Part shown: piece after piece, positions 7,799 to 29,868 of the stretch
How positions within the stretch are numbered: the stretch's first letter is position 1
How the letters are laid out: the number at the start of each line of letters is the position of its first letter
Virus record (IMG/VR): IMGVR_UViG_3300020411_000002
Reading direction: 5' to 3' (one strand)
From: a virus
Taxonomy: Duplodnaviria; Caudoviricetes
Length of the DNA stretch: 64,000 bases
Program-made: the position numbers and the translations under genes
Notes under the pieces: model-generated
Databases searched by the model: none
What the model saw: the letters and a program-made list of their open reading frames with translations, nothing else
Told to the model about the DNA's origin: nothing

Positions 7799-7842
7799 CG
7801 GGACAAAAGACAAAAGTTTCGTACTGTAAATTGTGCTATAAT
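7799..7842 (+). promoter_or_regulatory. Motif-A promoter: CGGGACAAAA plus extended -10
   Basis: CGGGACAAAA 7799-7808, 28-nt gap, TGcTATAAT with hexamer 7837-7842, upstream of ORF 7871. Confidence 0.7.
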
Positions 7843-7870
7843 ATATTTTTAAATTTAAGGTTACATTATT

Positions 7871-8314
7871 ATGATATATCAAAAAGAAGAAATTAAGTTA
7901 GGTGATGACGGCAATACCGCTTTTGCAACTGTCGGTAAGATAAATGCATTGATTACAGTATCTGCCGCATTAAGCTATGAGGATATAGCGTGTATATTTA
8001 TGAATAGCTTCTTCCTTAGTAAATACTTAGATGGGCAGGTGGAAGATTTTTCCACTATAAACACAGAAAGAGCTATACGTGATATATGCCAAAGTGAAAA
8101 AACCCTGTTTGAGTTTATACAGGACAACCATGTAACTACCCATAGCGTAAACTCATGTATATCTAATTTTGACGTTGAAGATACTCTTAAATATCTTAAA
8201 GAAGATTACGCTATTTTAAATGATTCACAGAAGAATCAAATTGATAGGATATATAGGGATAGTGTGAAACATTTTTCCACGTATGGAAGTAAGTTTGTAT
8301 ATAATAAAAGTTGA
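7871..8314 (+). CDS. Hypothetical protein
   Basis: 147-aa ORF downstream of a motif-A promoter. Confidence 0.7.
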   Translation: MIYQKEEIKLGDDGNTAFATVGKINALITVSAALSYEDIACIFMNSFFLSKYLDGQVEDFSTINTERAIRDICQSEKTLFEFIQDNHVTTHSVNSCISNFDVEDTLKYLKEDYAILNDSQKNQIDRIYRDSVKHFSTYGSKFVYNKS

Positions 8315-8322
8315 GGTGTTCT

Positions 8323-8826
8323 ATGCCACGTAAAGTAACCAAGACTATGCGCGAAGCCCGTAAACGTGCGGCTCAACAAAAAGCAGAAAGGCGTAAGTAT
8401 AAAGAAGCTTGTGACCAAGTTGATTTTAAATGGGGTTCTTGCACAGGTCGAATAGGTGATTCGACTTTGGAACTACATAATGTACGTGCCGGTGTTAGAG
8501 TTCAAAGGAAAGTAGCTAAAGCTAGACCTACTAAATCTGATTATGATTCTGTTTTTCTCGATATTGATTTTGGTAGCTTCGAAGAGTCTATGCTAGAGTC
8601 TGAGCCGAAAAAGCCTAAGACTACGACTGGTAGATTTTCTAGCAAGGCATTCTCACGTTGCAACATTCCGAAGACCATGAGTGAAGAAGAGTACAAAGCG
8701 CGTGAAGCTGCGGCAGCGTTAGAAATAGAACGCAAGAAGTCTTGTATTGCACCAGCCTACAATAAAGGTGCGTATCAATACATCGCTAGTCCAGAAGCTG
8801 CGAAAGATGCAGGTAAAAAACAATGA
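8323..8826 (+). CDS. Basic hypothetical protein with C-terminal APAYNKGAYQ motif
   Basis: ATG 8323 after GAGGTG; I recall the IAPAYNKGAYQYI motif from uncharacterised myovirus proteins (unverified). Confidence 0.7.
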   Translation: MPRKVTKTMREARKRAAQQKAERRKYKEACDQVDFKWGSCTGRIGDSTLELHNVRAGVRVQRKVAKARPTKSDYDSVFLDIDFGSFEESMLESEPKKPKTTTGRFSSKAFSRCNIPKTMSEEEYKAREAAAALEIERKKSCIAPAYNKGAYQYIASPEAAKDAGKKQ

Positions 8827-9296
8827 ACTTGATTGGTAATAAATTTGATAAGTTTGATCTTTTATATAGCATAGGGTCTGCTTTTCTATATGTCTGTTCG
8901 ACCGTGTTTACTTTTAACGGCTTTCTTGATTACTTAAAAGAAAACGTTTCGTACCTGTCTGTGCCTATAATGTACTTGATTGCTATAGCTTTTACTATTG
9001 CTATAGTAATTCCGTTCTCATATTGGCTGATAAGAATGCATAAGTCGAATAGATCGAAATCTGCCAAGGCGTCAGAGAATTATTTTCTGATGATGGAAAA
9101 GCTTTGCTTCAATAAATGTCCGTGCTGTAGGACTGAACTGGAAGTAAACGCAATTGGTTGTGATATTCGATTGTTCTGCACCTCTTGTGATTTTACTATC
9201 ATTATGGTAGGGTCTGTGCCGTTATACGAATCGACTGGAAAGAAAATAGTTGGACGTAAAAGTCTGCCTCATTACTTAATGGATAACTCTAAATGA
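8823..9296 (+). CDS. Membrane protein with C-terminal Zn ribbon
   Basis: Two TM-like segments, then CPCC...CTSC. Confidence 0.7.
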   Translation: MNLIGNKFDKFDLLYSIGSAFLYVCSTVFTFNGFLDYLKENVSYLSVPIMYLIAIAFTIAIVIPFSYWLIRMHKSNRSKSAKASENYFLMMEKLCFNKCPCCRTELEVNAIGCDIRLFCTSCDFTIIMVGSVPLYESTGKKIVGRKSLPHYLMDNSK

Positions 9297-9757
9297 ATCA
9301 TGTAAACGCTCTTTATTCTAATGTGCAACAAGCTGAAAATCTTTTTGTTGATTACATTAAAAGCCTGAATACACCCGTCGCTTATTTGTTCTTTGAGAAT
9401 GAAGAGCAAATTATGCAGGCTAGAGACCTTCTTATTAGAAGACAGATTAAAATACTAGGTGTTTCTGTAGATAGTCTTTTTATTAAAGTGCGTTTGACTA
9501 TGGAAGACGAAGCTCCGTATCTTATTAGTCGAGCCAACGTCTATTCAGCATTAACATCACGCGTACCTCCTGTTGACCCAAACATAGAGAAGTGCTATTC
9601 AATCTGTAAATCTGCTGGATACAATATAAGAATACATAGACCTATAAGTTCTATGCCTATGAACGAAAAGCGCAAGTTACATACTGCTTGCTTAATGCGA
9701 ATTGCACACGCACCTATACTTAATCATGCTCAGTGCATAGAAACCTTTTCTTATTAA
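9293..9757 (+). CDS. Hypothetical protein, paralog of 9767-10570
   Basis: Colinear similarity by eye (AENLFVDY/AEDLFITY; RIAHAPILNHAQC/RIAYGNLLDLEQC). Confidence 0.75.
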   Translation: MNHVNALYSNVQQAENLFVDYIKSLNTPVAYLFFENEEQIMQARDLLIRRQIKILGVSVDSLFIKVRLTMEDEAPYLISRANVYSALTSRVPPVDPNIEKCYSICKSAGYNIRIHRPISSMPMNEKRKLHTACLMRIAHAPILNHAQCIETFSY

Positions 9758-9766
9758 GGAATAATA

Positions 9767-10570
9767 ATGAAAACAATGGAAGCTATAATCTCAAACATGA
9801 GAAACGCCGAAGACTTGTTTATTACTTACTTAAACGAGCTAGGAAAAACAAACCGTTCTATTTATATGTTTTTCCGTAACGTACAAGAACTGTCCTACGC
9901 TGCCGAAAAAGTTGCAGCAATTAAGAGCGCTGAAATATTGGCTGCTAATTCTAATCAGTGTTACTTAGTAGTATCGCTGAATAAGGCGTTGCCTGAAAAC
10001 CACCAGCATAGCGTATACAGCTACCTTATTCAAAACGTAGAACAGACGAGCGATAACTTAAAGAAAGCTTTCGATGTATGCGACTCTAACGGTTTAGATA
10101 TTGATGTATTTAAGCCTATGAACCTTATGTCTGAAAGCATGAAGTTGGAAATAAAAGACGGGCTACTAAAGCGTATAGCGTATGGAAACTTATTAGACCT
10201 AGAGCAGTGTAAAGAACTGTTTGGACTGTCGGACGAAACCGACGAAACCGAAGACGAAGTTCCTGTGCGTGAAGTTCATATACACGAAGTATTACCAGTT
10301 ATTTCATCTTACGCTAAAAACGAAGCATTCAAAGCAGTAAAAGATTTGTCCGAGGAAGACCGAGCTAAGTTTATAGAAAAAGCTTTGAAGTATACCCAGC
10401 AAAGCTTTTTCTTGAAAAAACTTCCAGAGGGTTCAGACCTGCACTCTGTTATGTTTAGAGTCGGTGAAGAAGTTGGAGACTTCAATTCGTTTGATTCTAA
10501 AACAAAAGCACTCATACTTATATCGGAGTGTTCGGCTGCGTACTTGGTAAAACTTTACGACTGCATATAA
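9767..10570 (+). CDS. Hypothetical protein, paralog of 9293-9757 with an extra C-terminal domain
   Basis: 267 aa; first ~150 aa align by eye to the upstream ORF; acidic linker. Confidence 0.75.
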   Translation: MKTMEAIISNMRNAEDLFITYLNELGKTNRSIYMFFRNVQELSYAAEKVAAIKSAEILAANSNQCYLVVSLNKALPENHQHSVYSYLIQNVEQTSDNLKKAFDVCDSNGLDIDVFKPMNLMSESMKLEIKDGLLKRIAYGNLLDLEQCKELFGLSDETDETEDEVPVREVHIHEVLPVISSYAKNEAFKAVKDLSEEDRAKFIEKALKYTQQSFFLKKLPEGSDLHSVMFRVGEEVGDFNSFDSKTKALILISECSAAYLVKLYDCI

Positions 10571-10580
10571 GGAGATTAAA

Positions 10581-10943
10581 GTGAAAGAAGTATCTGAATA
10601 TATTGTTTTGGGCACTGTGCATAAAAACACATTATGTATGACTCCTAAGAACATTCTTGTTGTTGCTAGAAACGTTGGTTACAAAGTAGATAGAGAGCGT
10701 AATCCTCAAAAATGGGCAGAGCAGTATATTGAAGGTGCTTCTTTCATGAACGTGTTGCCCGGAGTTTACGAATCTAAAAAGCTATGTATCCAATGGCGAC
10801 ACCAGCTACCATACAGCGTAGCGGAACAGTGCGACATTATTGTCGTTAATCATGACGGAGAGCAGGACTTTCCGGTTAACAAAATTAAAGTTCTGGAAGA
10901 ACTTGTTTCATGTGGATTGATATATGAAAGAGAAGTTACATAA
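10581..10943 (+). CDS. Hypothetical protein
   Basis: GTG start after AAGGAG SD. Confidence 0.75.
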   Translation: MKEVSEYIVLGTVHKNTLCMTPKNILVVARNVGYKVDRERNPQKWAEQYIEGASFMNVLPGVYESKKLCIQWRHQLPYSVAEQCDIIVVNHDGEQDFPVNKIKVLEELVSCGLIYEREVT

Positions 10944-11307
10944 TATTCAAAGTTCTTCTATACCTACAGAAGAAATGTTAAATCGGTTTTGGAAATTGTC
11001 TATTGAGCAAATTGCCGCAATCTTTGTGAACAATTTTCATGACATAGATCCAGAAGAAGATAGTGTATTCAACAAAGAAGGCTTTACGGCAGTAGTAACC
11101 AAACATCTAAGAAGTTACATGATGGATGCGGAGTACGTTGTTTGCTTTACGATTAGATCGCTTGATGAATCTAATGACCCGAATGCCGAAGCAAGTCTTA
11201 CGTTTGCACGACAGTTCTATAGAGCTTTGGACGTAGACGAAGATGACTTTGAAATAGGTTTTGACCTATGCGTTGAACACTTTACGATTGTTCTAGGAGG
11301 TAAATAA
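10924..11307 (+). CDS. Hypothetical protein
   Basis: 127-aa ORF overlapping its neighbours. Confidence 0.7.
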   Translation: MKEKLHNIQSSSIPTEEMLNRFWKLSIEQIAAIFVNNFHDIDPEEDSVFNKEGFTAVVTKHLRSYMMDAEYVVCFTIRSLDESNDPNAEASLTFARQFYRALDVDEDDFEIGFDLCVEHFTIVLGGK

Positions 11308-11642
11308 TGCCTGCGTTTCAATGTTCCAAATGCGGTAGAGTAGATAATACAGCTACTGGACTTGGTAACATTCTTAGACGAACCAAAGACCTTTTCGATT
11401 GGTCTGATATAGAAGAACAGTATCACGGTAAACAGCTTTGTGCGGAACATGCACCTGCCCGTTATCGTGACGGTACTGCTACTGACTACGGAAAGTGGCA
11501 CAACACGTTTCCAATCATGTATCTACCAAAGAACATGTTTGAAGAAAAGAATTTCAACTTAGTACATAAAGAAACTGGTGAGCCGTACGGCGAATGGGTT
11601 AAACGTACTAGTTGGGACACCAGCAAAGAAGACAAACAATAA
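11307..11642 (+). CDS. Small Cys/His protein
   Basis: AGGAGG SD; FQCSKCG...LCAEH. Confidence 0.75.
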   Translation: MPAFQCSKCGRVDNTATGLGNILRRTKDLFDWSDIEEQYHGKQLCAEHAPARYRDGTATDYGKWHNTFPIMYLPKNMFEEKNFNLVHKETGEPYGEWVKRTSWDTSKEDKQ

Positions 11643-11661
11643 GTTCAAAAGGGAGCTTCAA

Positions 11662-12078
11662 ATGAAACAAATCACTGGCTTAGAAATAGCAACAATATTA
11701 CGTTCAATGTATAGTAGCGGCAAGAAGCCGCATCAAATAGCTTTCTTGCTTTTGCTTCATTACAAGAAAGACTTGTCTGTAGCTGAGTTTACGTACTTTA
11801 TGGGCGACCTGAAAAATTCGTCAGGAAAGCTACTAACTCGGTCTATGGTTTACTCTTATTTGTATGCTCTAGAAAAGCAGCACTACGTACAAAAAGAAAA
11901 GATGATTAGTGAAGAAGGTGCGTCATGTAACGTATACTCATTGACTCCAAAAGGGTATGGCTTAGTTCTTCCAATTATAGAACTAACAGACAACTGGGAT
12001 ACAGTGCGGTCTAGCTCTACTATTGTATCATTGTTTTCTACCGTGAACAGTACTGCATCGAGTAATACTACTCACTAA
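11662..12078 (+). CDS. Winged-helix (PadR/MarR-like) DNA-binding protein
   Basis: ATG 11662 after GGGAG; SMVYSYLYALEKQHYV...VYSLTPKG pattern. Confidence 0.6.
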   Translation: MKQITGLEIATILRSMYSSGKKPHQIAFLLLLHYKKDLSVAEFTYFMGDLKNSSGKLLTRSMVYSYLYALEKQHYVQKEKMISEEGASCNVYSLTPKGYGLVLPIIELTDNWDTVRSSSTIVSLFSTVNSTASSNTTH

Positions 12079-12112
12079 TTTAAAAGGGTGAGAACATAAA
12101 GAGTATCACCCT

Positions 12113-12889
12113 ATGAAAAAACTATTACTTCTGTTAGTGCTATGTTTTAGCGCACAAGCAGACAGAAGCATTATTGTAAATGTTTCAGAGGACTTTGCAT
12201 TCCCCTTGGGACAAGAAGTATTTTCAGACCTCGTCAGCGAATTGTATGTAGATGTTCCAGTAACAGTGGAAGTTACATACTTGCCCGCTAGACGGGGTTT
12301 ATTGCTTTTAAATGCAGACGAAATCGAAGCTGATTTGTACAAGTCAAAGAATGTCTTAGAACCTTACTCAAATTTGCTAGTACTTGAAGAACCTTTAATG
12401 GAAATCAGAGTAGCTATATTTTGCTTAGAGCGTAGTAACTGCGTACTGAACAAAGATACTATTTATTTAGTTCCAAGAGGTTTAGAGTCGGCAATGCAGT
12501 ATTGCTTAGAGAGTTCTTTAACTTGCGCTTATGTGTCTAGCGACCATGCATTTAAGGCTCTTGAACAAAACAAAGGTGACGCACTCTTTATGGATATGGC
12601 AGGTGCTACTCGGTTCTTATGTGGTTATTCTTTTCCAAAGATTTATTATTTGGAAATGTCCGAACTAAGTACAGAAGTATATCATGTAGTATCTAAAAGT
12701 ATGGAAGAATATGTACCTATGCTCACTCAGTCTATTGTTACTGTCAATAGAACTGGATATGTAGAAAAATCTATAGGTGCTTTTTGGAATGAATTCTACG
12801 GTTGTACCTCCTCTATTCCAATTAATGTAAATAGTGAGTATCAGCAATTGTTGGAGAATCTAAATGGAACAGACGCGACAAAACGATGA
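12113..12889 (+). CDS. Periplasmic solute-binding-protein-like (family 3 / PBP type 2)
   Basis: Signal peptide MKKLLLLLVLCFSAQA; LPARRGLLLLNADEIEA, YSNLLVLEEPL, RG, AFKALEQNKGDA resemble gammaproteobacterial SBP_bac_3-like proteins. Confidence 0.6.
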   Translation: MKKLLLLLVLCFSAQADRSIIVNVSEDFAFPLGQEVFSDLVSELYVDVPVTVEVTYLPARRGLLLLNADEIEADLYKSKNVLEPYSNLLVLEEPLMEIRVAIFCLERSNCVLNKDTIYLVPRGLESAMQYCLESSLTCAYVSSDHAFKALEQNKGDALFMDMAGATRFLCGYSFPKIYYLEMSELSTEVYHVVSKSMEEYVPMLTQSIVTVNRTGYVEKSIGAFWNEFYGCTSSIPINVNSEYQQLLENLNGTDATKR

Positions 12890-13253
12890 GCTTTATTGGG
12901 CACTACCTAAAGGAAAAGAAAATACAGAAGATAATTGGATAGTTGTTCTGTTCGATGACGGCAAGTTTCGTAAGATTGGAACTACGCACTCGTATAAGGA
13001 ATCCGACTTTTCTATAGTAGGTTTCCAGACGTTACATAACTATACGCGTATGGCAAGACTGGTTTCAGAGCAACAAAAATTCCCTGTAAAACGCCCTGTA
13101 GATAAGGTTGAAAAGATTCTTAGTATACTGAGAACTCTTAAAGACGACTTCGAAGGCAATGGAAGTCTAACCGATTCTTATCGACAGAATGAAGTGCAAA
13201 AGATATACAGGCTAATGGATGCGCTAGACGATGGAAACAATAAGACTGGATAA
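12864..13253 (+). CDS. Hypothetical protein
   Basis: 129-aa ORF. Confidence 0.7.
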   Translation: MEQTRQNDELYWALPKGKENTEDNWIVVLFDDGKFRKIGTTHSYKESDFSIVGFQTLHNYTRMARLVSEQQKFPVKRPVDKVEKILSILRTLKDDFEGNGSLTDSYRQNEVQKIYRLMDALDDGNNKTG

Positions 13254-13872
13254 AGACTACCCTGTAGTAACGTTTTCTGATCTGTTAGATCAGCCCATAC
13301 TCTTTAAACTGAGAAGCAATGAAGTAATTACTTTTTCAGCTATTGGTTTTTGGAGAATTTATTCAATATCTAAAACAGGAGAACCTCTGTATCGATACGA
13401 GCTATTAAGAATAAAAGAGTCTGAATCTGAATTTGAACATGACAAGCTCCCAGAAGATGTAGAGTGCGGTAGTTTTCATATTTTGTTTATACGAGATATG
13501 AGAGATTGGGTCGACAAGATTTTAATAGTCGATGACATTATCTTAAAAGTTGTACAAGATATAATGGAAAGTATAAAGCCTGTAGAAGGTTACGAAGATT
13601 ATTTTTGCCTTCGTGTAGTGATAAATGATGAATTACCTATACATCACTCCTGCTCCATTTTAAGCTATAGCACTTCTGATAGATCTATTATCGAAAAAAT
13701 GGGACAACAAGGAACTTTAGATAGCAGATCTTCGTCTTTTATAATAAGGCACTTGGGTCGAAAGTGTAGTATTAAGCAGTACAAGAAGCTTATGAAGGAA
13801 CATTCTGCCGATGTTACTCTGCTAAGTCAAAGTTCAGGTTCTGGATCTAAGCTAAAATTATCCTATAACTGA
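13231..13872 (+). CDS. Hypothetical protein
   Basis: 213-aa ORF. Confidence 0.7.
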   Translation: METIRLDKDYPVVTFSDLLDQPILFKLRSNEVITFSAIGFWRIYSISKTGEPLYRYELLRIKESESEFEHDKLPEDVECGSFHILFIRDMRDWVDKILIVDDIILKVVQDIMESIKPVEGYEDYFCLRVVINDELPIHHSCSILSYSTSDRSIIEKMGQQGTLDSRSSSFIIRHLGRKCSIKQYKKLMKEHSADVTLLSQSSGSGSKLKLSYN

Positions 13873-13881
13873 GGAAAAGAA

Positions 13882-15478: not shown

Positions 15479-15490
15479 TTATTTTTTAGA

Positions 15491-15535
15491 CGGGACAAAA
15501 CTGCTCTGTTTTTATAGCGCATATTGTAGTATAGT
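15491..15535 (+). promoter_or_regulatory. Motif-A promoter
   Basis: CGGGACAAAA 15491-15500, 29-nt gap, TATAGT 15530-15535. Confidence 0.55.
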
Positions 15536-15593
15536 AGCACAACGCTGAGTTAAGCGTTAAAACGTGTGTTTTTGTATAAAAAACATACACCTA

Positions 15594-15609
15594 AATAAAA
15601 GTGTAAATA
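15594..15609 (+). promoter_or_regulatory. Motif-B (TGTAAATA) putative phage promoter
   Basis: AATAAAAGTGTAAATA, identical to 15868-15883. Confidence 0.55.
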
Positions 15610-15637
15610 GTAATATATAAACTATGCATTTGGGGAA

Positions 15638-15775
15638 ATGATGAATCTTTTTGATCAACTTGATAAAGCATTCGAAAAGGAATTCAAACAGGTAGCTAAG
15701 AAAACTCCTAGCAAACCTGTAGACTGTAAAAGGAAAGAAAATGGTAATAAAAAGCAGCAACAAAAACTACAATAA
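15638..15775 (+). CDS. Small basic protein (45 aa), not in the ORF track
   Basis: GGGG SD then MMNLFDQLDKAFEKEFKQVAKKTPSKPVDCKRKENGNKKQQQKLQ. Confidence 0.5.
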   Translation: MMNLFDQLDKAFEKEFKQVAKKTPSKPVDCKRKENGNKKQQQKLQ

Positions 15776-15872
15776 AGCTAAGCGCGTTTTTATGGATATA
15801 CTATACAGTCCAGTCGGCGCTATTTTATTTGTGCTATTGATAGTGTTAGTATTAGCTCTATTTGGGGAATAA
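15741..15872 (+). CDS. Small single-TM protein (43 aa), not in the ORF track
   Basis: AGGA SD then MVIKSSNKNYNKAKRVFMDILYSPVGAILFVLLIVLVLALFGE. Confidence 0.55.
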   Translation: MVIKSSNKNYNKAKRVFMDILYSPVGAILFVLLIVLVLALFGE

Positions 15873-15883
15873 AAGTGTAAATA
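15868..15883 (+). promoter_or_regulatory. Motif-B (TGTAAATA) putative phage promoter
   Basis: Second AATAAAAGTGTAAATA copy, upstream of ORF 15932. Confidence 0.55.
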
Positions 15884-15931
15884 ACGGTTATGGGGACTTT
15901 TTAGTTCCCATAAATTGTTTCTATTCGATAT

Positions 15932-16321
15932 TTGGAACACCCTATGGAAAAGTTAAACGAACTATTAAATGGAATTCCTTATGACCTAATGCGTGTGTAT
16001 TATGCCAAGCGTATTGGTCGATATATAAAGAAAGCGCACAAATGCCCTAAGAACGAATCGCGTTTGTTTTTAAAGCGCGTAGTTAAGACGATAGACCTAG
16101 TGTATTCAATGCGCAAATATGATGAACGTGTGTTTTTAACCTATCGCGCCTTGATTCAAAAGACTTTTGGAACTTCTGCATTCTTGTTCTATGTGCAACA
16201 CTTAGATAGAGATAACTTTTCAAGCTTTTCTAGGCATTATTTTTTAAACCATTTAACGGTCGATGATGTGTACGCCGAGATCGATAGAAATATAACGGGA
16301 CAAAACTTACAAGAAACTTAA
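15932..16321 (+). CDS. Hypothetical basic protein (start may be the ATG four codons downstream)
   Basis: 129-aa ORF. Confidence 0.6.
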   Translation: MEHPMEKLNELLNGIPYDLMRVYYAKRIGRYIKKAHKCPKNESRLFLKRVVKTIDLVYSMRKYDERVFLTYRALIQKTFGTSAFLFYVQHLDRDNFSSFSRHYFLNHLTVDDVYAEIDRNITGQNLQET

Positions 16322-16339
16322 ACTGTTCTTTGCTATACT
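16296..16339 (+). promoter_or_regulatory. Motif-A promoter
   Basis: CGGGACAAAA 16296-16305, 28-nt gap, TGcTATACT with hexamer 16334-16339. Confidence 0.7.
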
Positions 16340-16377
16340 TTCATTACTGCACTAAACAGTAAACAAGAGGAAATACT

Positions 16378-16704
16378 ATGAATGACAAACAAATGCAAAA
16401 CGCATTCATGTCGGTTAGATTTGAAACCGCATGCCTTGATAAATCTTTGCAGAAATCTGGACGCTCACTTTCAGACGATAGCGTTTGGGAAGAAGTCTTT
16501 AAGTCTGCGGAAGAATGCGGCAAACTGTTCTATCAATTTGCTGGCGTGATTGTTGAGCCAAGCTTTGAGAACGAAGATGAAGAAGCTATGTCTGCGTATA
16601 GCGACTTTGTAGAGAACAATTCAAACTGGCCTAACTGGATTAGTTCTGTCCTAGATTCCAATTGGAAGAAAGTTGCAGAGCTTGTTAGAGAGAACGGTTA
16701 CTAG
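16378..16704 (+). CDS. Hypothetical protein
   Basis: GAGGA SD; 108 aa. Confidence 0.8.
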   Translation: MNDKQMQNAFMSVRFETACLDKSLQKSGRSLSDDSVWEEVFKSAEECGKLFYQFAGVIVEPSFENEDEEAMSAYSDFVENNSNWPNWISSVLDSNWKKVAELVRENGY

Positions 16705-16714
16705 GTTATAAGCT

Positions 16715-16736
16715 AGTGGGTTTTACGAAATCCACT
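16715..16736 (+). terminator. Hairpin downstream of a stop codon
   Basis: AGTGGGTTT-TACG-AAATCCACT; no clear U-tract. Confidence 0.35.
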
Positions 16737-16756
16737 GACGTATAACTTAACTATAG

Positions 16757-16800
16757 CGGGACAAAATGTTCAAAACATCACTGCTATATTTTGCTATACT
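16757..16800 (+). promoter_or_regulatory. Motif-A promoter
   Basis: CGGGACAAAA 16757-16766, 28-nt gap, TGcTATACT with hexamer 16795-16800. Confidence 0.7.
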
Positions 16801-16863
16801 TGTAGACGCTGGAAACAGCACACTTTTGTATTTTATTTTTAATCTTTCGTAGGAAACAGATAT

Positions 16864-18678
16864 ATGTCTATTTTAACAGATGCAAGCATGGTAGGTAAAA
16901 CAGTTAAAGCGCTAAACGGCGACCGTTGTAAGATCGTTAAAGCGTTAAAAGACAACTACAAGCTTGATAACGGAAATCTAATTCGTGCAAAGCAAGTTAT
17001 GCAGAAAGGGCGTGGATTTGTTCAGACTGACCTTACAATGCGCGATCTTGAAGACTCAGGTGCTGGATACGTAACACTAAAAGATTCTGGTACATCGAAG
17101 ACACCAGCAAAAAAGCCTGCAAACAAACCGGCTTCGAGTGGAACAAAGCAATCCAAAAACTCGGCGAAATCCAAAGAAGAAAAAACTGAGACTCGCCGCA
17201 AGCGTAAGCCAAAGCAAGAATCTAAAGAAGAAAAAGCTTCTACTCCACGCCGTACTCAAAGTTCAAAAACTAAGACACCAGCTAAAACACCTGATAAGAC
17301 ACCAGCTAAAACTAAGTCTAAGATTGAGCGTGTAGCGCTTGAAGGCAACAGCAAGTCTACATTGGAAAAGCTGCGTAAATTTATTGATATCACCGTGAAC
17401 GAACATTTAGTTACGTATCACTCAAACATTAATGCCGTAACTACAGGCGTATTAGTCAACAAAGACTATGACCAGATCGAATTCCAAGTTCGAGTAGCTC
17501 TAGACGTTCCTAAACCTGAACATCACAACAACGAATATTACTTTGCAATTGCTAAAGAAATCGGCGCGAACCTTAAAACACCTAGCTCAAAAATTCAAGC
17601 TATGCTTGCTACTCGCTTAGATATTGACGAAGCGGATCTTGAAGAAGAGTTTGTATTGAGTGTCGGCGATATCTTGCTTGATGAAGAAGGCAATCACCTT
17701 ATCTTCTGTGGTATGACTAAACGCTCTGGTAAGAATCAAATTGTTCTTGTCGATGTTAAGAATGAACAAGCGCTTGAAGTTGACCTGAAGTTCTTTGATA
17801 CGCTTGATTGGACTAGCTCTACACTAACTGAAATGTTCGGTCCTAGCATTGAAGATGTTGACGTTGCCGATGATGACCTGACTGACGACTTCGATATTGA
17901 AGATGAACTTGTACCAATTGCAGAACTTGATTGGGAAAATACAGACCGCGAAACCTTGATTGATTTACTATCTCTGAGCTACTCTGACGAAGACATTATT
18001 GAGTTCTTGGAAAACAACGATGACATCGAAGTGACCAAAGAAGATCTTGAAGCGCCGATTAATGAGTTGATTGAAAATCTGGTTTCTATCATGAAAGATG
18101 AAGAAATCGATTTTGAAGAAGATGATGATCTTGAAGCCGCTCTTGAAGAAGGCGACGACCTTGAAGATGATGAACTTGAAGATGATGAACTTGAAGATGA
18201 TGAACTTGAAGACGACCTAGACGAAGAGCTTGAAGACGAAGAGCTTGAAGACGATCTAGACGACGACCTAGAAGACGGTGAAGAAGTTGAAGTAGAAGAG
18301 CTTGATGTTGATGATATGCTTGAAGAGCTTCTAGCAAGCAATGCAATTACGGCAGCGCAATCTCGTAAAATGTCTGATGAAAAAATCGTAAGCAAATACT
18401 ACGAAGTGTTCGGCGAAGACGAAGACGAAGACGAGCTTGAAGAAGAGGCGGAAGAGTTAACAGTGGATGAAATGGCAGATGCCTTACTTGATGCCGATGT
18501 TATCTCTGCAAAAGAACTTCGCAAAATGAGCGATGAAGATATTGCCGAAGCATACGCTGAAAACTTTGATGCCGAACTTGATGCCGAAGAAGAAATCGAA
18601 GACGAAGACGAAGACGAACTTTTGGATGATGAAGAGCTTCTAGACGAAGACGACCTAGAAGACGACCTAGAAGACTAA
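16864..18678 (+). CDS. Charge-segregated low-complexity protein (basic N-terminal third, D/E-rich C-terminal half)
   Basis: 604 aa; KTPAKKP/KTPDKTPAK repeats; long EDDELEDD tracts; duplicated ...RKMSDE... module. Confidence 0.85.
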   Translation: MSILTDASMVGKTVKALNGDRCKIVKALKDNYKLDNGNLIRAKQVMQKGRGFVQTDLTMRDLEDSGAGYVTLKDSGTSKTPAKKPANKPASSGTKQSKNSAKSKEEKTETRRKRKPKQESKEEKASTPRRTQSSKTKTPAKTPDKTPAKTKSKIERVALEGNSKSTLEKLRKFIDITVNEHLVTYHSNINAVTTGVLVNKDYDQIEFQVRVALDVPKPEHHNNEYYFAIAKEIGANLKTPSSKIQAMLATRLDIDEADLEEEFVLSVGDILLDEEGNHLIFCGMTKRSGKNQIVLVDVKNEQALEVDLKFFDTLDWTSSTLTEMFGPSIEDVDVADDDLTDDFDIEDELVPIAELDWENTDRETLIDLLSLSYSDEDIIEFLENNDDIEVTKEDLEAPINELIENLVSIMKDEEIDFEEDDDLEAALEEGDDLEDDELEDDELEDDELEDDLDEELEDEELEDDLDDDLEDGEEVEVEELDVDDMLEELLASNAITAAQSRKMSDEKIVSKYYEVFGEDEDEDELEEEAEELTVDEMADALLDADVISAKELRKMSDEDIAEAYAENFDAELDAEEEIEDEDEDELLDDEELLDEDDLEDDLED

Positions 18679-23565: not shown

Positions 23566-23582
23566 GGGGGCTGCCCGCCCCC
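23566..23582 (+). terminator. GC-rich hairpin between 22557-23513 and 23610-24152
   Basis: GGGGGC-TGCCC-GCCCCC followed by TTACTCTT. Confidence 0.45.
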
Positions 23583-23609
23583 TTACTCTTACAATAATGG
23601 AGAATAAAA

Positions 23610-24152
23610 ATGGCGAAAATGGTATCACTTAAAGCGACTGACTTTAAAGCTGCTGGAACTAAAGTAAGTCAAATTCAAAAATCAATGGAAGGTTTTGCCT
23701 CTATTTCTGCACAACTTGAAGCGCTAGCTGCTAAAGTTGAAAATCCTCGTCTTGCTAAATCAATCACTACTCAGCAAAACAAAATCAATAAAGGTATCGA
23801 GCGCGTTGAAGGTCTTATTGAAGTACTTGTTGAAAAGATGACTTCGGAAGATGCTCCTGTTCCTGCGGCTGCTAAAGCTCCTGCAAAAGCAAAAGCACCT
23901 GCTAAAGCTCCTGCAAAAGCAAAAGCTGCTGCTACTAAAGCTCCTGCTCGTGGTAAAGCTACTGCTAAAACTCCACGCGGTAAAGCTGCTGCTACCAAGA
24001 CTGCAACCAAAGCAAAAGCTCCTGCTCGTGGTAAAGCAAAAGCTGCTGCTACTAAAGCTCCTGCTCGTGGTAAAGCAAAAGCAACTAAAGCACCAGCCCG
24101 TGGTCGCCGTTCAAAAGCTGCTGCTGGCGACGAGTTCGATTTCGAAAGCTAA
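23610..24152 (+). CDS. Histone H1-like / Hc1-AlgP-like Lys-Ala-Pro-rich nucleoid protein
   Basis: N-terminal coiled coil, then AKAPAKAK and TKAPARGK tandem repeats, acidic tip DEFDFES; biased GCT/AAA codons suggest high expression. Confidence 0.7.
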   Translation: MAKMVSLKATDFKAAGTKVSQIQKSMEGFASISAQLEALAAKVENPRLAKSITTQQNKINKGIERVEGLIEVLVEKMTSEDAPVPAAAKAPAKAKAPAKAPAKAKAAATKAPARGKATAKTPRGKAAATKTATKAKAPARGKAKAAATKAPARGKAKATKAPARGRRSKAAAGDEFDFES

Positions 24153-24153
24153 G

Positions 24154-24181
24154 TCTAGCGCTAGTTTTCTAGCTTAGATTT
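24154..24181 (+). terminator. Intrinsic terminator
   Basis: TCTAG-C-GCTAG-TTTT-CTAGC-TTAGA then TTT, directly after the stop. Confidence 0.6.
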
Positions 24182-24240
24182 ATATTGGGTCTGTAACATT
24201 AGAAGTGTTCAGACCCTTTACTCGTTTCATTGGGGTTTTT

Positions 24241-24774
24241 ATGCCAGCTTTTGTAGATGATATACAATTTGATAGGTGGTATGTTTCTGACCTAGTTCGC
24301 AAGGCAGAAAGTCTTACTTTTCTAACTGCTCAGTTAGAGTCTATGCGTTCACAAATAGAAAGTCATTTAGATGTTGTCGATGCCGAGCTTAGATTAGAGT
24401 ACTTCGAGATAAAAGAGGATGCTAGGTCAAAGTTTAATTCAGTTCAAGATATTGAAAATTGTGTCTTGGAATTGAGAAGAGCTAAGGCACGCCAGTCTAA
24501 ACTTACCAATCAAGAATATGTAAAGACATTAGAGTTAATCAAACTTCTATTGCGCTCCATTGCTAAGTACGTATACGATAACCTATCTAACGATGATAGA
24601 AAGACATTTGAACTCCGTTCATCAGACCCGTTCTTTGCTGACGTAGACGACAATGCTTTTTCAATGAGCAAACGCATTACAGAGGTTTTATCTAAGCAAA
24701 TATTAGAATATAAATCTGGTAAACAAAATGTCAGAATATCAAACAACCCAATACAAGGGTCTAAAGCTACTTGA
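24241..24774 (+). CDS. Hypothetical helical protein
   Basis: ATG 24241 (ORF track starts at GTG 24205); coiled-coil-like. Confidence 0.7.
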   Translation: MPAFVDDIQFDRWYVSDLVRKAESLTFLTAQLESMRSQIESHLDVVDAELRLEYFEIKEDARSKFNSVQDIENCVLELRRAKARQSKLTNQEYVKTLELIKLLLRSIAKYVYDNLSNDDRKTFELRSSDPFFADVDDNAFSMSKRITEVLSKQILEYKSGKQNVRISNNPIQGSKAT

Positions 24775-25132
24775 TGATACTCTTAAAAAGCTTCGCAACG
24801 ATATCTACAGAATTATAGAACTTCCTAACGGTTACTACTTTTGCGGATACGTTGAATTTTCTTCACTATCTTCCGATATCCTAAATGTTGAAATCGCACT
24901 TCTGGATATGAACTTTTCAAAAGTGGAAAGTGTTGACTTGGTTAGCTTTAATAGAGTTGTAGCCGAAAGCTTTTTAAGAATAAGAGCAGACTATCAAGCT
25001 TGGATTCAAACCTATTTAAGCGGTGGTGAATCTAGCTTTAGACGCGACGAAGAAGCTGAAAAGCTTTTCTCCGATTTTATTAACAAGTCTGATACTGAAC
25101 TAGATTTAGATATCAGAGAATTTTCATTGTAG
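24728..25132 (+). CDS. Hypothetical protein
   Basis: 134-aa ORF. Confidence 0.7.
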   Translation: MSEYQTTQYKGLKLLDDTLKKLRNDIYRIIELPNGYYFCGYVEFSSLSSDILNVEIALLDMNFSKVESVDLVSFNRVVAESFLRIRADYQAWIQTYLSGGESSFRRDEEAEKLFSDFINKSDTELDLDIREFSL

Positions 25133-25141
25133 GGAACGCTA

Positions 25142-27187
25142 ATGGCAATTAGAAAAAGACGAACCAGCCCCGCGAAGACCCCTGCCAAGTCTCAATCGTA
25201 TGACGAAGATAGCATTAAGTTCCAAGAAGGTCTTAATGGTATTCGTGCCAATCCATCTATGTATTTAGGTGCGCTTGGTAATCCTATGGTATTCCGAATG
25301 GTAAAGGAAGCTGTAGATAACGTGTACGATGAATTTGCAGCAGGTCGTAACACAGGTGCTGAGATTATTGTTAATCCAAAAGACAACTCGTATATTATTG
25401 CTGACTACGCTCAAGGTATTCCAGTTGGATTAAAGCAGACCGAACACGAAGGCAAAGTTAGTGCAATGACTTTGATTCTTACCAAAGTTCATGCTGGTGG
25501 TAAGTTTGATGATACTGCATATAAAACATCTAGTGGTACTCACGGTGTTGGTATCGCAGCCGTTAACGCCGCATCTAGTGTTATGGAAGTTTGGACTAAG
25601 CGTGAAAAAGTTTGGTATGTGCAAACGTTCAAGAAAGGTGTTGCTGATGCCAAAGTTAAAAAGCTTGGTACACGAGCACCTGCCGCATTCAAGAACTTTG
25701 ACTTAGCAGAAAAAACTATCAGCAAGTATGGAACTATTGTTAGATTCATACCAGACCAAACCGTTGTGTCCGAAGACGCTGCTCGTGGTTCACGTAAAGT
25801 AGCAGAAGACAAGTTGACTGTAGCAAAGCTTGAACTTGGTACAGCCGGTAGCTGGTTACGCGACTTAGCAATGCTTAACCCAGGCTTCCACATTACTTAC
25901 ACTTGCGTTGGTAAAGGTTCTAAGAAGTTTGTGAACACTAAAGGTCTAGACTGGTTAGTGTTGAACAGAATCAAAGAAGCAGAAGCACAAGCTGTATCCC
26001 GTAAACCTTTCATGTACGAAGATGAAGACCTGTCTTGTGCTATCACTTGGACTGACCAAGCAGACGATCATTTATTTACTTCGTATGTTAACAGTTCACC
26101 TACAGTAGAACATGGTACTCACGTTGAAGGTTTCCGTTCTGCTCTACAAAAAGCTATCAAGCCGCATCTTACTGATCGTGACAAGAAAGCAAAGTTCACT
26201 GTTCATGATTTGATGATAGGTGCTTGCGGTGTGTTGAACTTTAAAATGAACTCTGCTCAGTATAGTTCACAGGTTAAAGATAAGCTAGTATCAAAAGTTG
26301 CTAAAGACGTTGAAACAAAGCTTGAAGAATCTTTATTCGAATGGTTCAAAGATAATCCGCGTATTGCAAAGAACATTATCAAGAAAGCTACTACTGCTAA
26401 CAATGCCCGCGAATCTCTAAAGAAAGTCATGAAGTCTATGACAGAAGTTCGTAAGAAGTCTCGCGGTGTTTTGCCTGAGAACTTAACAGAAGCACCAAAC
26501 GTTAAACCTGACCAACGTGAAATATACATCGTTGAGGGGGACTCTGCTGGTGGTACTGCAAAGAATGCTAGAAACTCTAATCAAGAGATATTGAAAATGT
26601 CTGGTAAGCCTGCCAACGCCCTCAATATATCTTTGGATAAGCTGTTAAACTCGCAAGCAGTACTAAACATTATTATTTCGTTAGGTATTGACCCAGGCTC
26701 TCTAGACATACAAGCTGACAGTCCTAAGTTTAGCTCTGATAAGTTACGTTGCCAACGTGTTTACTTGCTCTCTGACCCAGATCCAGACGGTGCTCACATT
26801 AACGTATTGCTTTTGTGTTTCTTTTTCCGCTTGCTACCAGACTTTATAAAAGAAGGTCGATTGTATTGCGTAGAAGGTAAACTTTACTCTGCTCTATACA
26901 AAGGAAAGCTTTATTCTGGTGACACGTTTGATGAATGTTATAGCTCGATGCCACAAACAGAAGAAGCTAAGAAAGCAATAACACGTATCAAAGGATGGGG
27001 AGAAGTTAACCCAGATATGCTTGACCCAATCGCTTTCGATCCAGATACAAGACTGGTACGTCAAATATCTTGGAACGATGACCCTGCAAAAATTGCTTAC
27101 TTCCGAAACATTGCTGCCGAGTCTGCGGCTGAGAAGCGTAAACTTCTTGGACTTAAAGAATCGCGTCCAGCTTTAGAAGAAGCTTAG
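25142..27187 (+). CDS. gyrB: Type IIA DNA topoisomerase, B (ATPase/TOPRIM) subunit
   Basis: EAVDN, QGIP, HAGGKF, GTHGVG, EGDSAGG, DPDPDGAHI, RIKGWGE motifs; GyrB/ParE-like. Confidence 0.93.
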   Translation: MAIRKRRTSPAKTPAKSQSYDEDSIKFQEGLNGIRANPSMYLGALGNPMVFRMVKEAVDNVYDEFAAGRNTGAEIIVNPKDNSYIIADYAQGIPVGLKQTEHEGKVSAMTLILTKVHAGGKFDDTAYKTSSGTHGVGIAAVNAASSVMEVWTKREKVWYVQTFKKGVADAKVKKLGTRAPAAFKNFDLAEKTISKYGTIVRFIPDQTVVSEDAARGSRKVAEDKLTVAKLELGTAGSWLRDLAMLNPGFHITYTCVGKGSKKFVNTKGLDWLVLNRIKEAEAQAVSRKPFMYEDEDLSCAITWTDQADDHLFTSYVNSSPTVEHGTHVEGFRSALQKAIKPHLTDRDKKAKFTVHDLMIGACGVLNFKMNSAQYSSQVKDKLVSKVAKDVETKLEESLFEWFKDNPRIAKNIIKKATTANNARESLKKVMKSMTEVRKKSRGVLPENLTEAPNVKPDQREIYIVEGDSAGGTAKNARNSNQEILKMSGKPANALNISLDKLLNSQAVLNIIISLGIDPGSLDIQADSPKFSSDKLRCQRVYLLSDPDPDGAHINVLLLCFFFRLLPDFIKEGRLYCVEGKLYSALYKGKLYSGDTFDECYSSMPQTEEAKKAITRIKGWGEVNPDMLDPIAFDPDTRLVRQISWNDDPAKIAYFRNIAAESAAEKRKLLGLKESRPALEEA

Positions 27188-27195
27188 GAGTTACT

Positions 27196-27663
27196 ATGGA
27201 TAGTGTAAACCCTGTTGAAGTTTTTATGATAGTAGATATTGTGTTTACTTCGCTTTATGATGATTCTACTAGCGGAATGTATAACATGAATATTTCTAAA
27301 CCTACTTGGGTTAGTGCTACGTTACATCAGATGAACGACGAACTTGTATTTCCAACGTTTGCACTATCTGTAATTTGTCCTTTCGTTATAGGCAAAGATG
27401 GAACAATCTATAAATGTTCATACAATAAAGATATTGAAGGAGTTGAATACTTTGGATATGAAATGGAATTTGTTGAAGGAATATGCTTGAATACAAATGA
27501 CGGTCTTTGGGACTGGAAAGAAAAAACAAGCAAGAGAGCTGTTATAGGTACTATTAAAAGAGTCTACGGTAGTATAGCCAAATTCAGACAGCAAATTGAA
27601 AAATACCCCTATGACAATTCTCTTTTAAAATCCATTATAACAGGAGCAGAGTTGGAACTATGA
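27196..27663 (+). CDS. Hypothetical protein between the topoisomerase subunits
   Basis: AGGAG SD; 155 aa. Confidence 0.75.
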   Translation: MDSVNPVEVFMIVDIVFTSLYDDSTSGMYNMNISKPTWVSATLHQMNDELVFPTFALSVICPFVIGKDGTIYKCSYNKDIEGVEYFGYEMEFVEGICLNTNDGLWDWKEKTSKRAVIGTIKRVYGSIAKFRQQIEKYPYDNSLLKSIITGAELEL

Positions 27664-28196
27664 GCACACACGAGATTTCGAAAACAGAATTTGATAGTAA
27701 AGTTATTTTGTATCTAGATCCTGGGTCTCGTCCTATCAATCAGGAGTACACGCAACGCTGGTTTAGCTTGCCTGCTTTTGTAGATGAAGACTCCAAGCAG
27801 ATAATAGTGCCTGGGTCTATCTCTACTTTGTATCGTGCGCGTATAGTTATAACTGACGATAGAACAGTCCGCAAGTTCGGCAAAGCTCTTAATCTTAATG
27901 GAAAGAAGTTGCTACCTCCCACTTACGATGATCTTATTTCAAAGTGTGTTCACGTAGAGGAAGGCTTCAACGAGTTTGTTAATACTGAGAACTGGATCAA
28001 AACAAGTTCTTTTAAATCGTATTCTCACTATCAGAAGTTTTGGCAAGAGGGCGAACCTTTTACAATTCCGAATCCTGAATATATTGACTTGTACAAACTG
28101 TTTAGAGATATAAGCGTTAAAGCTTGTCCGTCATTGCACGGCAATCCGAGTGGTGAAAGTACCGACACTAATCACGTAGTATGTAGCGATTGCTAA
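27660..28196 (+). CDS. Hypothetical protein between the topoisomerase subunits
   Basis: ATGA overlap; 178 aa; C-terminal CPSLH...HVVCSDC. Confidence 0.75.
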   Translation: MSTHEISKTEFDSKVILYLDPGSRPINQEYTQRWFSLPAFVDEDSKQIIVPGSISTLYRARIVITDDRTVRKFGKALNLNGKKLLPPTYDDLISKCVHVEEGFNEFVNTENWIKTSSFKSYSHYQKFWQEGEPFTIPNPEYIDLYKLFRDISVKACPSLHGNPSGESTDTNHVVCSDC

Positions 28197-28198
28197 AC

Positions 28199-28206
28199 TG
28201 TAAATA
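28199..28206 (+). promoter_or_regulatory. Motif-B (AAACTGTAAATA)
   Basis: Intergenic, 31 nt upstream of the topoisomerase A start. Confidence 0.55.
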
Positions 28207-28237
28207 AGAACTAACTTTATACTTAAAGGTTTTTCCA

Positions 28238-29818
28238 ATGAGAAGAAGAAAGTCTGCTACCGAGGCAGAAAGCCCACCAGCAAGAAGAACGAGAAAGAGA
28301 AGAAGCTTATCTGCTTTACGCGATAAGACAAAAACTGGTACTCGCAGAAAAGCACCTAGTACGGCAACGCCCTCAGAAGACTCTGTATCTATAGATTCTT
28401 TTGCAGCCGCATCATTAAAACAATATGGTAGCTACGTTGTAGAAGAAAGGTCTATCACTGATTTTCGTGATGGACTAAAGCCCGTTCACCGTTACATTTT
28501 ATGGGCTATGAAGAACCTTGGTTTGAACTCCAAGTCTAAATATAAAAAGTCTGCTCGTACTATTGGTGACGTTCTTGGTAAGTACCACCCTCACGGCGAC
28601 CAAGCTGCTTACGGTGCAATGGCAACTCTAGTTAACTACAAGCTATCTCCACAATTGGTAGATGGACAAGGTAACTGGGGTACTCCTGTTGATAACCAAG
28701 CTGCTATGCGTTATACAGAAGCACGACTTAGCGCAATGAGTGATATCTTTCTATTGGATAAAGGTTATCTTAAAACTGTTCCAATGGTAGACAACTTTGA
28801 TAACTCAGAGAAAGTACCTCTATACCTACCAGCGACCTTACCAATGCTTCTTGTTCTTGGTAGCTCTGGTATAGGCTTTGGTGTTAAGTCTGACAGTCCT
28901 CCGTTTAACATAGATGGAGTATACGAACTTGTTCTGCTTGGATTGAAAGCGTTCAGAGCCAACAAGAAGCTGGGTCCTAATAATTGTGCTAAGCATTTAC
29001 GTATAGATTATTCTTACGGTGGTGTTCAAGTTAGTGAAGACGAAGACGTTGCTAATCTTATCAAGTACGGTAAAGGAAGTATCAAGTTTGCACCAGAAGT
29101 AAATGCAGACTGGAAGAACAAACTGATTGAGATTAAGTCCTTCTCTCCAGGCTTTAGAAGTTCTAATGTTATTCAGAAGAAGCTTGCTAAGTTTGCAGAA
29201 ATGGATGCAGTGTCTAAAGCTGGCGACGATTCAAACGAGAAGAATCCTAAGTCAGGACCTCTTGGTGCTTACTTCTACATAAAACCTGCTCGTGGACTTT
29301 CAGAAGAAAAGTTCTTTGACTTGGCAGAGCAAGTATTCAAAGAGTTGGTATCTAGCGAGTCTTATGATTTAGGCTTTACGGTTCGTAGAGCAGATGACTC
29401 CAACATGTTTGTTAAGTCTAGCTTTGTAACATTCTTCAATAACTGGATCAAGTATCGTGTACAGTTAGAGATTGATTACCTACAAGCCTTAATAGATGAA
29501 TGCTTAACTCAGATAGAAAGAACTGAACTTCTTATCTTTGGTGTAGATAACAGACAAGTAATCATCAAGTCACTAGATAGTAAGGACCCAGATAAGTTCC
29601 TTATTACTAAGCTGAAAATTTCTGCTGAAAAAGCAAAGGCTATACTAGACCTTCAAGTTCGTAAACTTGCTAAGTTAGAAAAGCCAGCACTGCTTCAAAA
29701 GATTAAAGAGTTAAAGGCAGAGATTAGACAGTACAAGCAAGACCAAGAAGATCCAACGCCTAGAATTGCTGCTAAGACAAAAGAGCAATTCAAAGCCTAC
29801 AAGTCCCGTGTTAAATAA
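28238..29818 (+). CDS. gyrA: Type IIA DNA topoisomerase, A (cleavage) subunit lacking the C-terminal beta-pinwheel
   Basis: DGLKPVHR, KSARTIGDVLGKYHPHGD, DGQGNWG, AAMRYTEARL (catalytic Tyr); ends at 526 aa. Confidence 0.92.
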   Translation: MRRRKSATEAESPPARRTRKRRSLSALRDKTKTGTRRKAPSTATPSEDSVSIDSFAAASLKQYGSYVVEERSITDFRDGLKPVHRYILWAMKNLGLNSKSKYKKSARTIGDVLGKYHPHGDQAAYGAMATLVNYKLSPQLVDGQGNWGTPVDNQAAMRYTEARLSAMSDIFLLDKGYLKTVPMVDNFDNSEKVPLYLPATLPMLLVLGSSGIGFGVKSDSPPFNIDGVYELVLLGLKAFRANKKLGPNNCAKHLRIDYSYGGVQVSEDEDVANLIKYGKGSIKFAPEVNADWKNKLIEIKSFSPGFRSSNVIQKKLAKFAEMDAVSKAGDDSNEKNPKSGPLGAYFYIKPARGLSEEKFFDLAEQVFKELVSSESYDLGFTVRRADDSNMFVKSSFVTFFNNWIKYRVQLEIDYLQALIDECLTQIERTELLIFGVDNRQVIIKSLDSKDPDKFLITKLKISAEKAKAILDLQVRKLAKLEKPALLQKIKELKAEIRQYKQDQEDPTPRIAAKTKEQFKAYKSRVK

Positions 29819-29825
29819 AATATAG

Positions 29826-29868
29826 CGGGACAAAACACATTGAGTTCAATATTAATGTGTGATATAAT
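29826..29868 (+). promoter_or_regulatory. Motif-A promoter
   Basis: CGGGACAAAA 29826-29835, 27-nt gap, TGaTATAAT with hexamer 29863-29868. Confidence 0.7.

Follow-up and report, generated by a model that had tools for sequence, protein, structure and literature searches.

Several described promoter types place a dedicated sequence upstream of a host-type -10 element. Middle promoters of phage T4 have the MotA box, (a/t)3TGCTTtA, in place of the -35; its centre is at -30, 11-13 bp before the -10, and its use needs AsiA. The late promoters activated by Ogr and Delta in P2 and P4, the Mor and C promoters of Mu and the class-I promoters of MarA and SoxS have an upstream site at about -65 to -40, standing in fixed phase with a sigma70 -10, with a -35 that is weak or absent. 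In the Rak2-like jumbo phages Pectobacterium phage CBB and Cronobacter phage GAP32, 'divergent RpoD-like' promoters have been predicted, in which a classic or extended -10 is accompanied by a lineage-specific upstream box, G-rich and ending in ACA or AAAC (PMC5259590). Here we describe a promoter-like class built on the decamer CGGGACAAAA, which recurs upstream of an extended -10 in a 64,000-nt stretch of a Caudoviricetes genome (IMG/VR record IMGVR_UViG_3300020411_000002; hereafter, the window). Designs of this kind are already known; what is unusual here is the placement of the box around -45 and its conservation throughout a clade that extends from phages of plant pathogens to marine phages.

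Exact copies of CGGGACAAAA were found at 7799, 15491, 16296, 16757 and 29826, all on the + strand, against an expectation of 0.07 from shuffled sequences, none of 100 of which reached five. The cores GGGACAAA and GGACAAAA occurred in the window only at these five sites and never on the - strand. Downstream of the boxes, after 28, 29, 28, 28 and 27 nt in site order, stood the hexamers TATAAT, TATAGT, TATACT, TATACT and TATAAT; the chance of a TATANT at one of three offsets is 0.0044 for a single site, which makes about 1.6e-12 for five of five. TGn preceded the hexamer at four of the five sites and ATA(A/G) lay directly 5' of four of the five boxes, site 15491 being the exception to each, with TAG before its hexamer and a T-tract plus AGA before its box. 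The counts, spacings, hexamers and flanks listed in the original prediction from this DNA were therefore all recovered on recounting, as was its placement of a non-palindromic box at about -50 to -41, in the same orientation as transcription. Its statement that no TTGACA-like -35 is present held for four sites, where the best match 16-18 nt before the hexamer reached 1, 2, 3 and 3 of 6 bases, which is the background level, and failed for site 29826, which has TTGAGT at a 17-nt spacer and is the sole window site with a fair -35. Measured against the sequence features of extended -10 promoters, TG stood at -15/-14 before TAnnnT at four of the five sites, with no -35 above background at four. Non-coding DNA makes up 3.9% of the window, yet it holds four of the five boxes, and the remaining box overlaps the final 26 nt of a doubtful TTG-start open reading frame (ORF) without a homologue in the related phage NCTB. 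All five sites lie at gene boundaries, with + strand genes starting 22-390 nt downstream of the boxes.

Transcription from these sites, all on the + strand, would be expected to start about 7 nt past the hexamers. At site 1, the A/T flank AAAATATAA and the box (7799-7808) together span 7790-7808, between a gene end at 7791 and a gene start at 7871; the extended -10 TGcTATAAT follows at 7834-7842 after a spacer of 28, and the predicted start at about 7849 would leave a 22-nt leader to the ATG at 7871. Site 2 lies 13 nt past the gene for the UvsE-like endonuclease, with the T-tract flank TTTTTTAGA and the box (15491-15500) at 15482-15500 and the hexamer TATAGT, without TGn, at 15530-15535 after a spacer of 29; its predicted start at about 15542 is followed by tiny ORFs and hairpins, and its syntenic counterparts lie at position 46418 in NCTB and 6027 in L192, a marine relative. 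Site 3 comprises the flank GAAATATAA and the box (16296-16305) at 16287-16305 and the extended -10 TGcTATACT at 16331-16339, with a 32-nt leader to the ATG at 16378 of a 108-aa gene that has an NCTB orthologue. Upstream of a 604-aa gene, site 4 combines the flank TAACTATAG and the box (16757-16766) at 16748-16766 with the extended -10 TGcTATACT at 16792-16800 (spacer 28; 57-nt leader to the ATG at 16864), and has syntenic counterparts at NCTB 47565 and L192 7741. Site 5 lies 8 nt past the gene for the second topoisomerase II subunit, with the flank AAAATATAG and the box (29826-29835) at 29817-29835 and the extended -10 TGaTATAAT at 29860-29868, and the unit behind it continues into a sigma-like ORF and the DnaB and terminase genes.

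The window is a segment of a jumbo phage genome, with genes for topoisomerase II subunits, a DnaB-like helicase, terminase and a UvsE-type endonuclease among many ORFs of unknown function. It is collinear with 31.8-93.8 kb of NCTB at protein identities of 27-77%, and its phage falls in the clade of PaBG, Lu11, NCTB and Dickeya and Erwinia phages known as the 'Lupandier' group (PMC7412058), in which sigma factors are encoded and an own RNA polymerase is absent (PMC7824862, PMC7412058). A 243.7-kb Tara Oceans contig matched the window with 0 mismatches over 12.4 kb and supplied 17.7 kb of the same genome upstream of the window (L278; positions there are given as negative window coordinates); besides L192, the sequences of marine relatives are labelled L272-L275, L279 and L281. 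Megablast against phage records returned no match, nor did a protein-seeded scan of IMG/VR, and a pattern scan of that database, as a collection without the window's phage, gave zero matches to the full promoter architecture and single chance matches to a relaxed pattern.

Two further sites were present upstream of the window, at -6826 (ACGGACAAAA behind TTTTTTATC) and -1910 (CAGGACAAAA behind AAAATATAG), each 28 nt from a TGnTATAnT, giving at least seven sites in the genome, with the invariant core GGACAAAA and TGn in six of the seven. A survey of the clade collected 52 sites from seven lineages, 3-12 per phage (NCTB, three marine metagenomic relatives, Y3, Yoloswag, AD1 and JA11), with a box-to-hexamer spacer of 27-30 nt in 52 of 52. 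In every lineage, the sites were restricted to one 30-50 kb block upstream of the topoisomerase genes. The positions of high information were A-43, present in all 52 sites, A-44 and A-42, G-49, the TG at -15/-14, and T-12, A-11 and T-7, the last two again in 52 of 52. Neither position nor strand was random, one of two conditions on which the original prediction had staked the class: cores occurred at five window sites only, and all 52 clade sites were co-oriented with genes at near-fixed spacing.

Among the individual phages, NCTB carries GGTACAAAA 11 times in forward and 2 times in reverse orientation (1 and 1 in a reversed-sequence control), and 8-9 of the forward copies, spanning 16.8-61 kb, have a hexamer 29 nt downstream, which is TGcTATAaT in seven. 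Common to these NCTB sites are a flanking T-tract and, at the -35 position, the block TATAC. From the endonuclease gene to the 604-aa gene, three of them share their gaps with window sites 15491, 16296 and 16757, and the marine contig MDTA01078178 has the same three sites in that region. Upstream of the topoisomerase subunit gene, the box reads CGTACAAAA, GGTACAAAA and GGGTCAAAA in three more marine relatives. We found about 9-11 sites with the consensus cTCTGCATAtAAtAGGCTaAAATAG in Erwinia phage Y3, 6-8 with the consensus GCAaAtAACTGGaCAAAAtAG in Dickeya phage AD1, some 11 with the core TGGTCAAAA in Erwinia phage Yoloswag, 9-10 exact TGTCCAAAA sites in Dickeya phage JA11 and three sites of a diverged version in PaBG. 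In the gap after the second topoisomerase subunit gene, a box site is kept in the window (29826), NCTB (60962) and Y3 (256872), the NCTB box being combined with CTGTAAAATAG. The matching gap carries a canonical TTGACA-N17-TATAGT or TAATAT in L273 (~7130-7170) and L275 (~4750-4790), and CTGTAAAAT in NCTB and L274; going by these motifs, promoter types have turned over there. We dropped this turnover as evidence for the use of host sigma, as all three promoter types alternate in the gap.

Sequence between box and -10 was not conserved among copies, which argues that the copies are kept by selection rather than being recent duplications. Within a genome the G/C core of the box was constant, and between genomes it changed: GGGAC or GGAC in the window's phage, GGTAC in NCTB, L192 and L274, CGTAC in L272 and GGGTC in L273. 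Phages on the same Dickeya solani strain had different cores (JA11 TGTCC, AD1 TGGAC), as did phages of the same host species, E. amylovora (Y3 AGGCT, Yoloswag TGGTC). The box therefore varies with the lineage of the phage rather than with its host, so that its reader is base-specific and most likely encoded by the phage. The A-tract at -44 to -41 was unchanged across lineages. Its position is that of the proximal subsite of an upstream (UP) element, which fits a contact by the alpha C-terminal domain of RNA polymerase; by comparison with UP elements, A/T-rich flanks and the A-tract are present, but a lineage-specific G/C core fills -50 to -45.

For the reader itself, the sole DNA-binding candidate seen in the early block was a PadR-like winged-helix ORF at 11578-12078 (+), which has an orthologue in NCTB alone. 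It belongs to the operon that follows site 7799, and its Pfam match (E 1.8e-5) scored 25.1 bits, below the cut-off of 27. NtcA (GTA-N8-TAC), CRP and IHF were dropped as readers by eye, their spacing or consensus being unfit. We also rejected the box as an ordinary -35 with a nearer -10, since nothing is conserved 16-18 nt past the GGGACA hexamer in any lineage, and a terminator or hairpin reading, as pairing occurs at one of the five sites, where the 29826 box pairs with an upstream GTCCCG, and Rfam and tRNA scans were empty.

Compared with the systems above, the class agrees with T4 middle promoters in its phage-specific, non-palindromic box, its host-type -10, often with TGn, the missing functional -35 and, as we infer, a phage-encoded reader. 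The analogy to the T4 MotA box that accompanied the original prediction holds in this outline only, as the box at -50 to -41 lies about 15 bp further upstream than MotA's -30 and its sequence is unrelated. A Pfam scan of 36 window ORFs gave no MotA or AsiA match, and the MotCF (PF09158) and AsiA (PF09010) profiles matched nothing in NCTB, Y3, JA11, PaBG or Lu11, where the control genomes gave no match either. Like the present class, the CBB and GAP32 promoters stand before replication genes and a later sigma-like gene, in phages with an RpoD-like sigma but without an RNA polymerase of their own; however, their box takes the place of the -35, leaving about 13 nt to the extended -10 (spacer of about 17 nt), as opposed to about 25 nt before the TG here, a shift upstream of some 1.5 helical turns, and they belong to a separate phage clade, while the sigma of the window's phage is far more divergent and missed by Pfam. 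The activator-dependent class-I type is alike in arrangement, and its MarA form is also asymmetric and monomeric; its box sequence is unrelated, and the present class is found clade-wide across very different hosts. Early promoters of T4 and UP promoters of the rrnB P1 type share an A-tract near -42, A/T-rich flanks, an extended -10 and a location at early genes, but T4 early promoters keep a -35 (GTTTAC-like) and UP elements have no invariant G/C core, whereas here the core switches in concert between lineages. In position the box resembles class-I and UP-element sites more than sigma appropriation. The box class is undescribed for this clade in the papers and records open to searching, a scope outside which the Lu11 and Y3 genome papers fall: the Lu11 record annotates TTGACA-type and CTGTAAAT promoters only, the Y3, AD1 and JA11 records list no regulatory features, and the PaBG paper has a single, general mention of promoters.

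Other promoter motifs were present in the same genomes. The motif AAA(C/G)TGTAAATA(G/A) occurs in 8 copies on the + strand of the window (12826, 15602, 15876, 20592, 22489, 28199, 46184 and 62043), mostly 38-68 nt before gene starts, and not at all on the - strand. Upstream of genes, motifs of the TGTAAATA type are over-represented in the window, NCTB and Y3, and in the latter two no upstream 8-mer is more enriched; the Lu11 GenBank record labels them 'putative middle/late promoter', and they resemble the T4 late promoter TATAAATA. The spacer of site 7799 (7823-7830) carries CTGTAAAT, which has 7 of the 8 bases of the TGTAAATA motif, so that this site may, on sequence, be a dual promoter of both classes. 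A third motif, TTGCTAATTTATAA (CGCTAATTT in Y3), lies where the primase gene and the operon with the RpoD-like sigma diverge. It is found in NCTB (6601) and two marine relatives (L279 ~3950, L281 ~3305), with variants in a third marine relative and at 10-12 sites in Y3. In NCTB and L272-L275, the promoter that follows the topoisomerase gene has the related block AATACTAATTTAG just 3' of it, and the window form, at ~29903-29915, is CATAATTTAGAAC. Whole-genome scans of NCTB and Y3 for canonical -35/-10 promoters returned 5 intergenic matches each, several overlapping box sites, and no recurrent class. In the enteric members, the box promoters additionally retain T(T/A)G at -35 to -33.

Two sigma-like proteins of the phage bear on how the -10 is read. 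The orthologue of PaBG gp118, an RpoD-like sigma, is encoded at L278:305-1363 (window coordinates ~-17397 to -16339), 9.5 kb upstream of the first box, and its gene is followed 3' by SSB and then UvsX genes, as in PaBG. Pfam left the protein blank, several homologues carry Sigma70_r2, and a profile aligned it weakly to sigma70 regions 1.2-2.4. Its AlphaFold2 model (mean predicted local distance difference test score, pLDDT, 79) had sigma70 chains as all of its top 50 PDB matches, at a probability of ~1.0, with regions 1.2, 2 and one like the non-conserved region (NCR) in the modelled fold and no sigma-3 domain seen. A low-confidence stretch of about 60 residues then leads to a small three-helix C-terminal domain, which has only ~22 residues past the region-4.1-like helix, short for a full helix-turn-helix, and whose last helix differs among lineages with different boxes. 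Where sigma70 reads the TG through H455 and E458, the aligned residues of the protein are Q and K. The second protein, a PaBG gp112-type ORF at 32792-33958 (+), is downstream of site 5. Its AlphaFold2 model (mean pLDDT 80) had Thermus sigma A chains as best PDB matches, at E 0.09-0.4, and sequence profiles run against PDB matched no sigma, so that on modelling its likeness to sigma is weak. It may be expressed from a promoter of the box class and is itself a candidate for reading a different one; as a reader of the box it was dropped on weak evidence, as NCTB and L274 share GGTAC yet differ strongly in its putative C-terminal helix. Three further RpoD-like sigma loci had zero box sites within 10 kb, leaving sigma/box pairs from five lineages only.

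The explanation that we favour, with a probability of roughly 0.4, is that a host primary sigma acts on the extended -10 and that an upstream class-I or UP-like element contains a G/C core read by a phage protein. One phage-specific promoter class would then serve a 40-50 kb block of small early-type, nucleotide and replication genes. A sigma70-family sigma, taken as the host primary sigma, would anchor polymerase on TGnTATAaT with no need of a -35, while the element from about -60 to -41 would be a class-I or UP-type site, with the alpha C-terminal domain presumably on the A-tract at -44 to -41. The G/C core (GGGAC here) and the A/T flank would be read base-specifically by a DNA-binding protein of the phage, probably a monomer, which would recruit or stabilise polymerase from upstream. 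A TGn -10 is the consensus of the primary sigmas in all these hosts, Erwinia, Dickeya and marine. Considering that canonical promoters are few, unmodified host polymerase would seem to find its best sites in Y3 and AD1 at the box promoters. The 32 nt between the GGGACA hexamer and the -10 are unfit for sigma region 4 on the beta flap. We also count in favour of this explanation that the two phage sigma-like proteins appear, from the motif survey, to have two other phage-specific motif classes available to them. That host sigma70, rather than the RpoD-like sigma of the clade, reads the -10 is our best guess. Of the sigma70-type, activator-dependent class first proposed, the promoter-like character, the extended -10 and a trans-acting reader, probably phage-encoded given the lineage-specific box, are supported, and the looser parts are the host sigma70 and the likeness to MotA.

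Several observations weigh against this explanation. JA11 box sites have poor -10 hexamers (TATCCT, TAAACT, CATACT), which host sigma70 alone would use badly; a conserved activator candidate was not found in the window; and a truly early class would need a reader that is injected with the DNA or made from basal transcription. A cascade from phage sigma to box promoters would be expected to give just the layout seen: the RpoD-like sigma is encoded 5' of the box regulon, not within it, and has a promoter of another type, and a box promoter precedes the gene of the second sigma-like protein. The main alternative, somewhat less probable, is that the class consists of middle-type promoters read by the phage RpoD-like sigma, with its sigma-2 part on the extended -10 and the box bound by the C-terminal three-helix domain, on a long flexible linker, or by a partner. 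Host-read promoters would then yield the phage sigma, which would serve the box promoters of replication genes and the second sigma-like gene, followed by the TGTAAATA late promoters. The sigma70-like model fold, the place of the sigma gene upstream of the boxes, behind TTGCTAATTTATAA in relatives, with the gp112-type gene downstream of site 5, the variation of the last sigma helix between lineages of differing box, and the weak JA11 hexamers all fit this cascade, and the same logic underlies the published prediction for phage CBB (PMC5259590). It is opposed by geometry, as the box lies 28 nt from the -10 (32 from the -35-like hexamer), some 1.5 helical turns or ~15 bp beyond known sigma region 4 binding, by the model, with its missing sigma-3 domain, replaced TG-reading residues and short C-terminal segment, and by the perfect host-type extended -10, which would serve host sigma70 anyway. 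The stricter form, in which the clade's RpoD-like sigma, without sigma-3, itself reads the box as a '-45 element' through the mini-domain on its ~60-residue linker, is unlikely.

Alternatively, the class could consist of strong early promoters read by unmodified host polymerase alone, with box and flank forming a composite UP element for the alpha C-terminal domains, as at T4 early promoters. The A-tract, kept in 52 of 52 sites, coincides with the proximal subsite, A/T-rich flanks (AAATATA, TTTTTTATC, TGCAAAT) fill the region of the distal one, the class is located among small, poorly conserved genes, and UP-like elements have been reported at CBB early promoters (PMC5259590). Yet the alpha C-terminal domain cannot account for a constant G/C core (CGGGAC in five of five here, GGTAC in 8-9 NCTB sites, TGTCC in ten of JA11), the concerted switch of the core between lineages on the same host is left unexplained, the gap from the distal T-tract to the proximal A-tract exceeds the UP consensus, and the JA11 hexamers would make feeble promoters, so that we regard a purely host-driven class as decidedly improbable. 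Because an extended -10 can work without upstream help, the box might instead be the operator of a phage repressor that silences the class later, or an RNA-level element on read-through transcripts, given that at several sites it lies within a few nt of an upstream stop codon and that the 29826 box can pair. We consider this very improbable: -50 to -41 is a poor position for steric repression, the hairpin is confined to a single window site with no Rfam match, and a spacing to the -10 that shifts by no more than 1 nt among the 52 sites of the seven lineages speaks for a box tied directly, by its geometry, to bound polymerase.

Side by side with the promoters, the 1.4-kb region at 15479-16864 contains three box promoters, two TGTAAATA motifs and a terminator-like hairpin at 15888-15913, and otherwise tiny ORFs, one of them for a hydrophobic peptide of roughly 27 aa; its arrangement is syntenic in NCTB and MDTA01078178, and it had no Rfam family match. 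The terminase large subunit (37047-40559, +) has 1170 aa and an intein with a LAGLIDADG endonuclease (PF14890, PF14528; residues ~149-570), the terminases of relatives having 735-737 aa, and the UvsX/RecA gene upstream of the window (L278 2669-5545) contains an intein too. NCTB begins (1-250, L134) with a poly-T run and three direct repeats of ATATCCCGGAAGGGAA, which may mark an origin or a packaging site, or may have arisen in assembly as an artefact.

Jumbo phages without an RNA polymerase of their own must reprogram the host enzyme, and the present class offers a handle on how the PaBG/Lu11/NCTB clade may do so. The -45 geometry differs from T4 appropriation and from other jumbo-phage promoters, and the reader should therefore be a new activator or an unusual sigma. 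If the phage sigma itself read the box, the '-45 element' would be a promoter geometry not known for any sigma70-family factor, and its conservation would reach from phages of Erwinia and Dickeya to a jumbo phage abundant in the sea. An element of 20-25 bp with fixed geometry, in which some positions are invariant and others specific to a lineage, present in the culturable members Y3, AD1, JA11 and Yoloswag, is directly testable, and as the phage is abundant in Tara Oceans assemblies, the motif can aid the annotation of transcription units in marine viromes.

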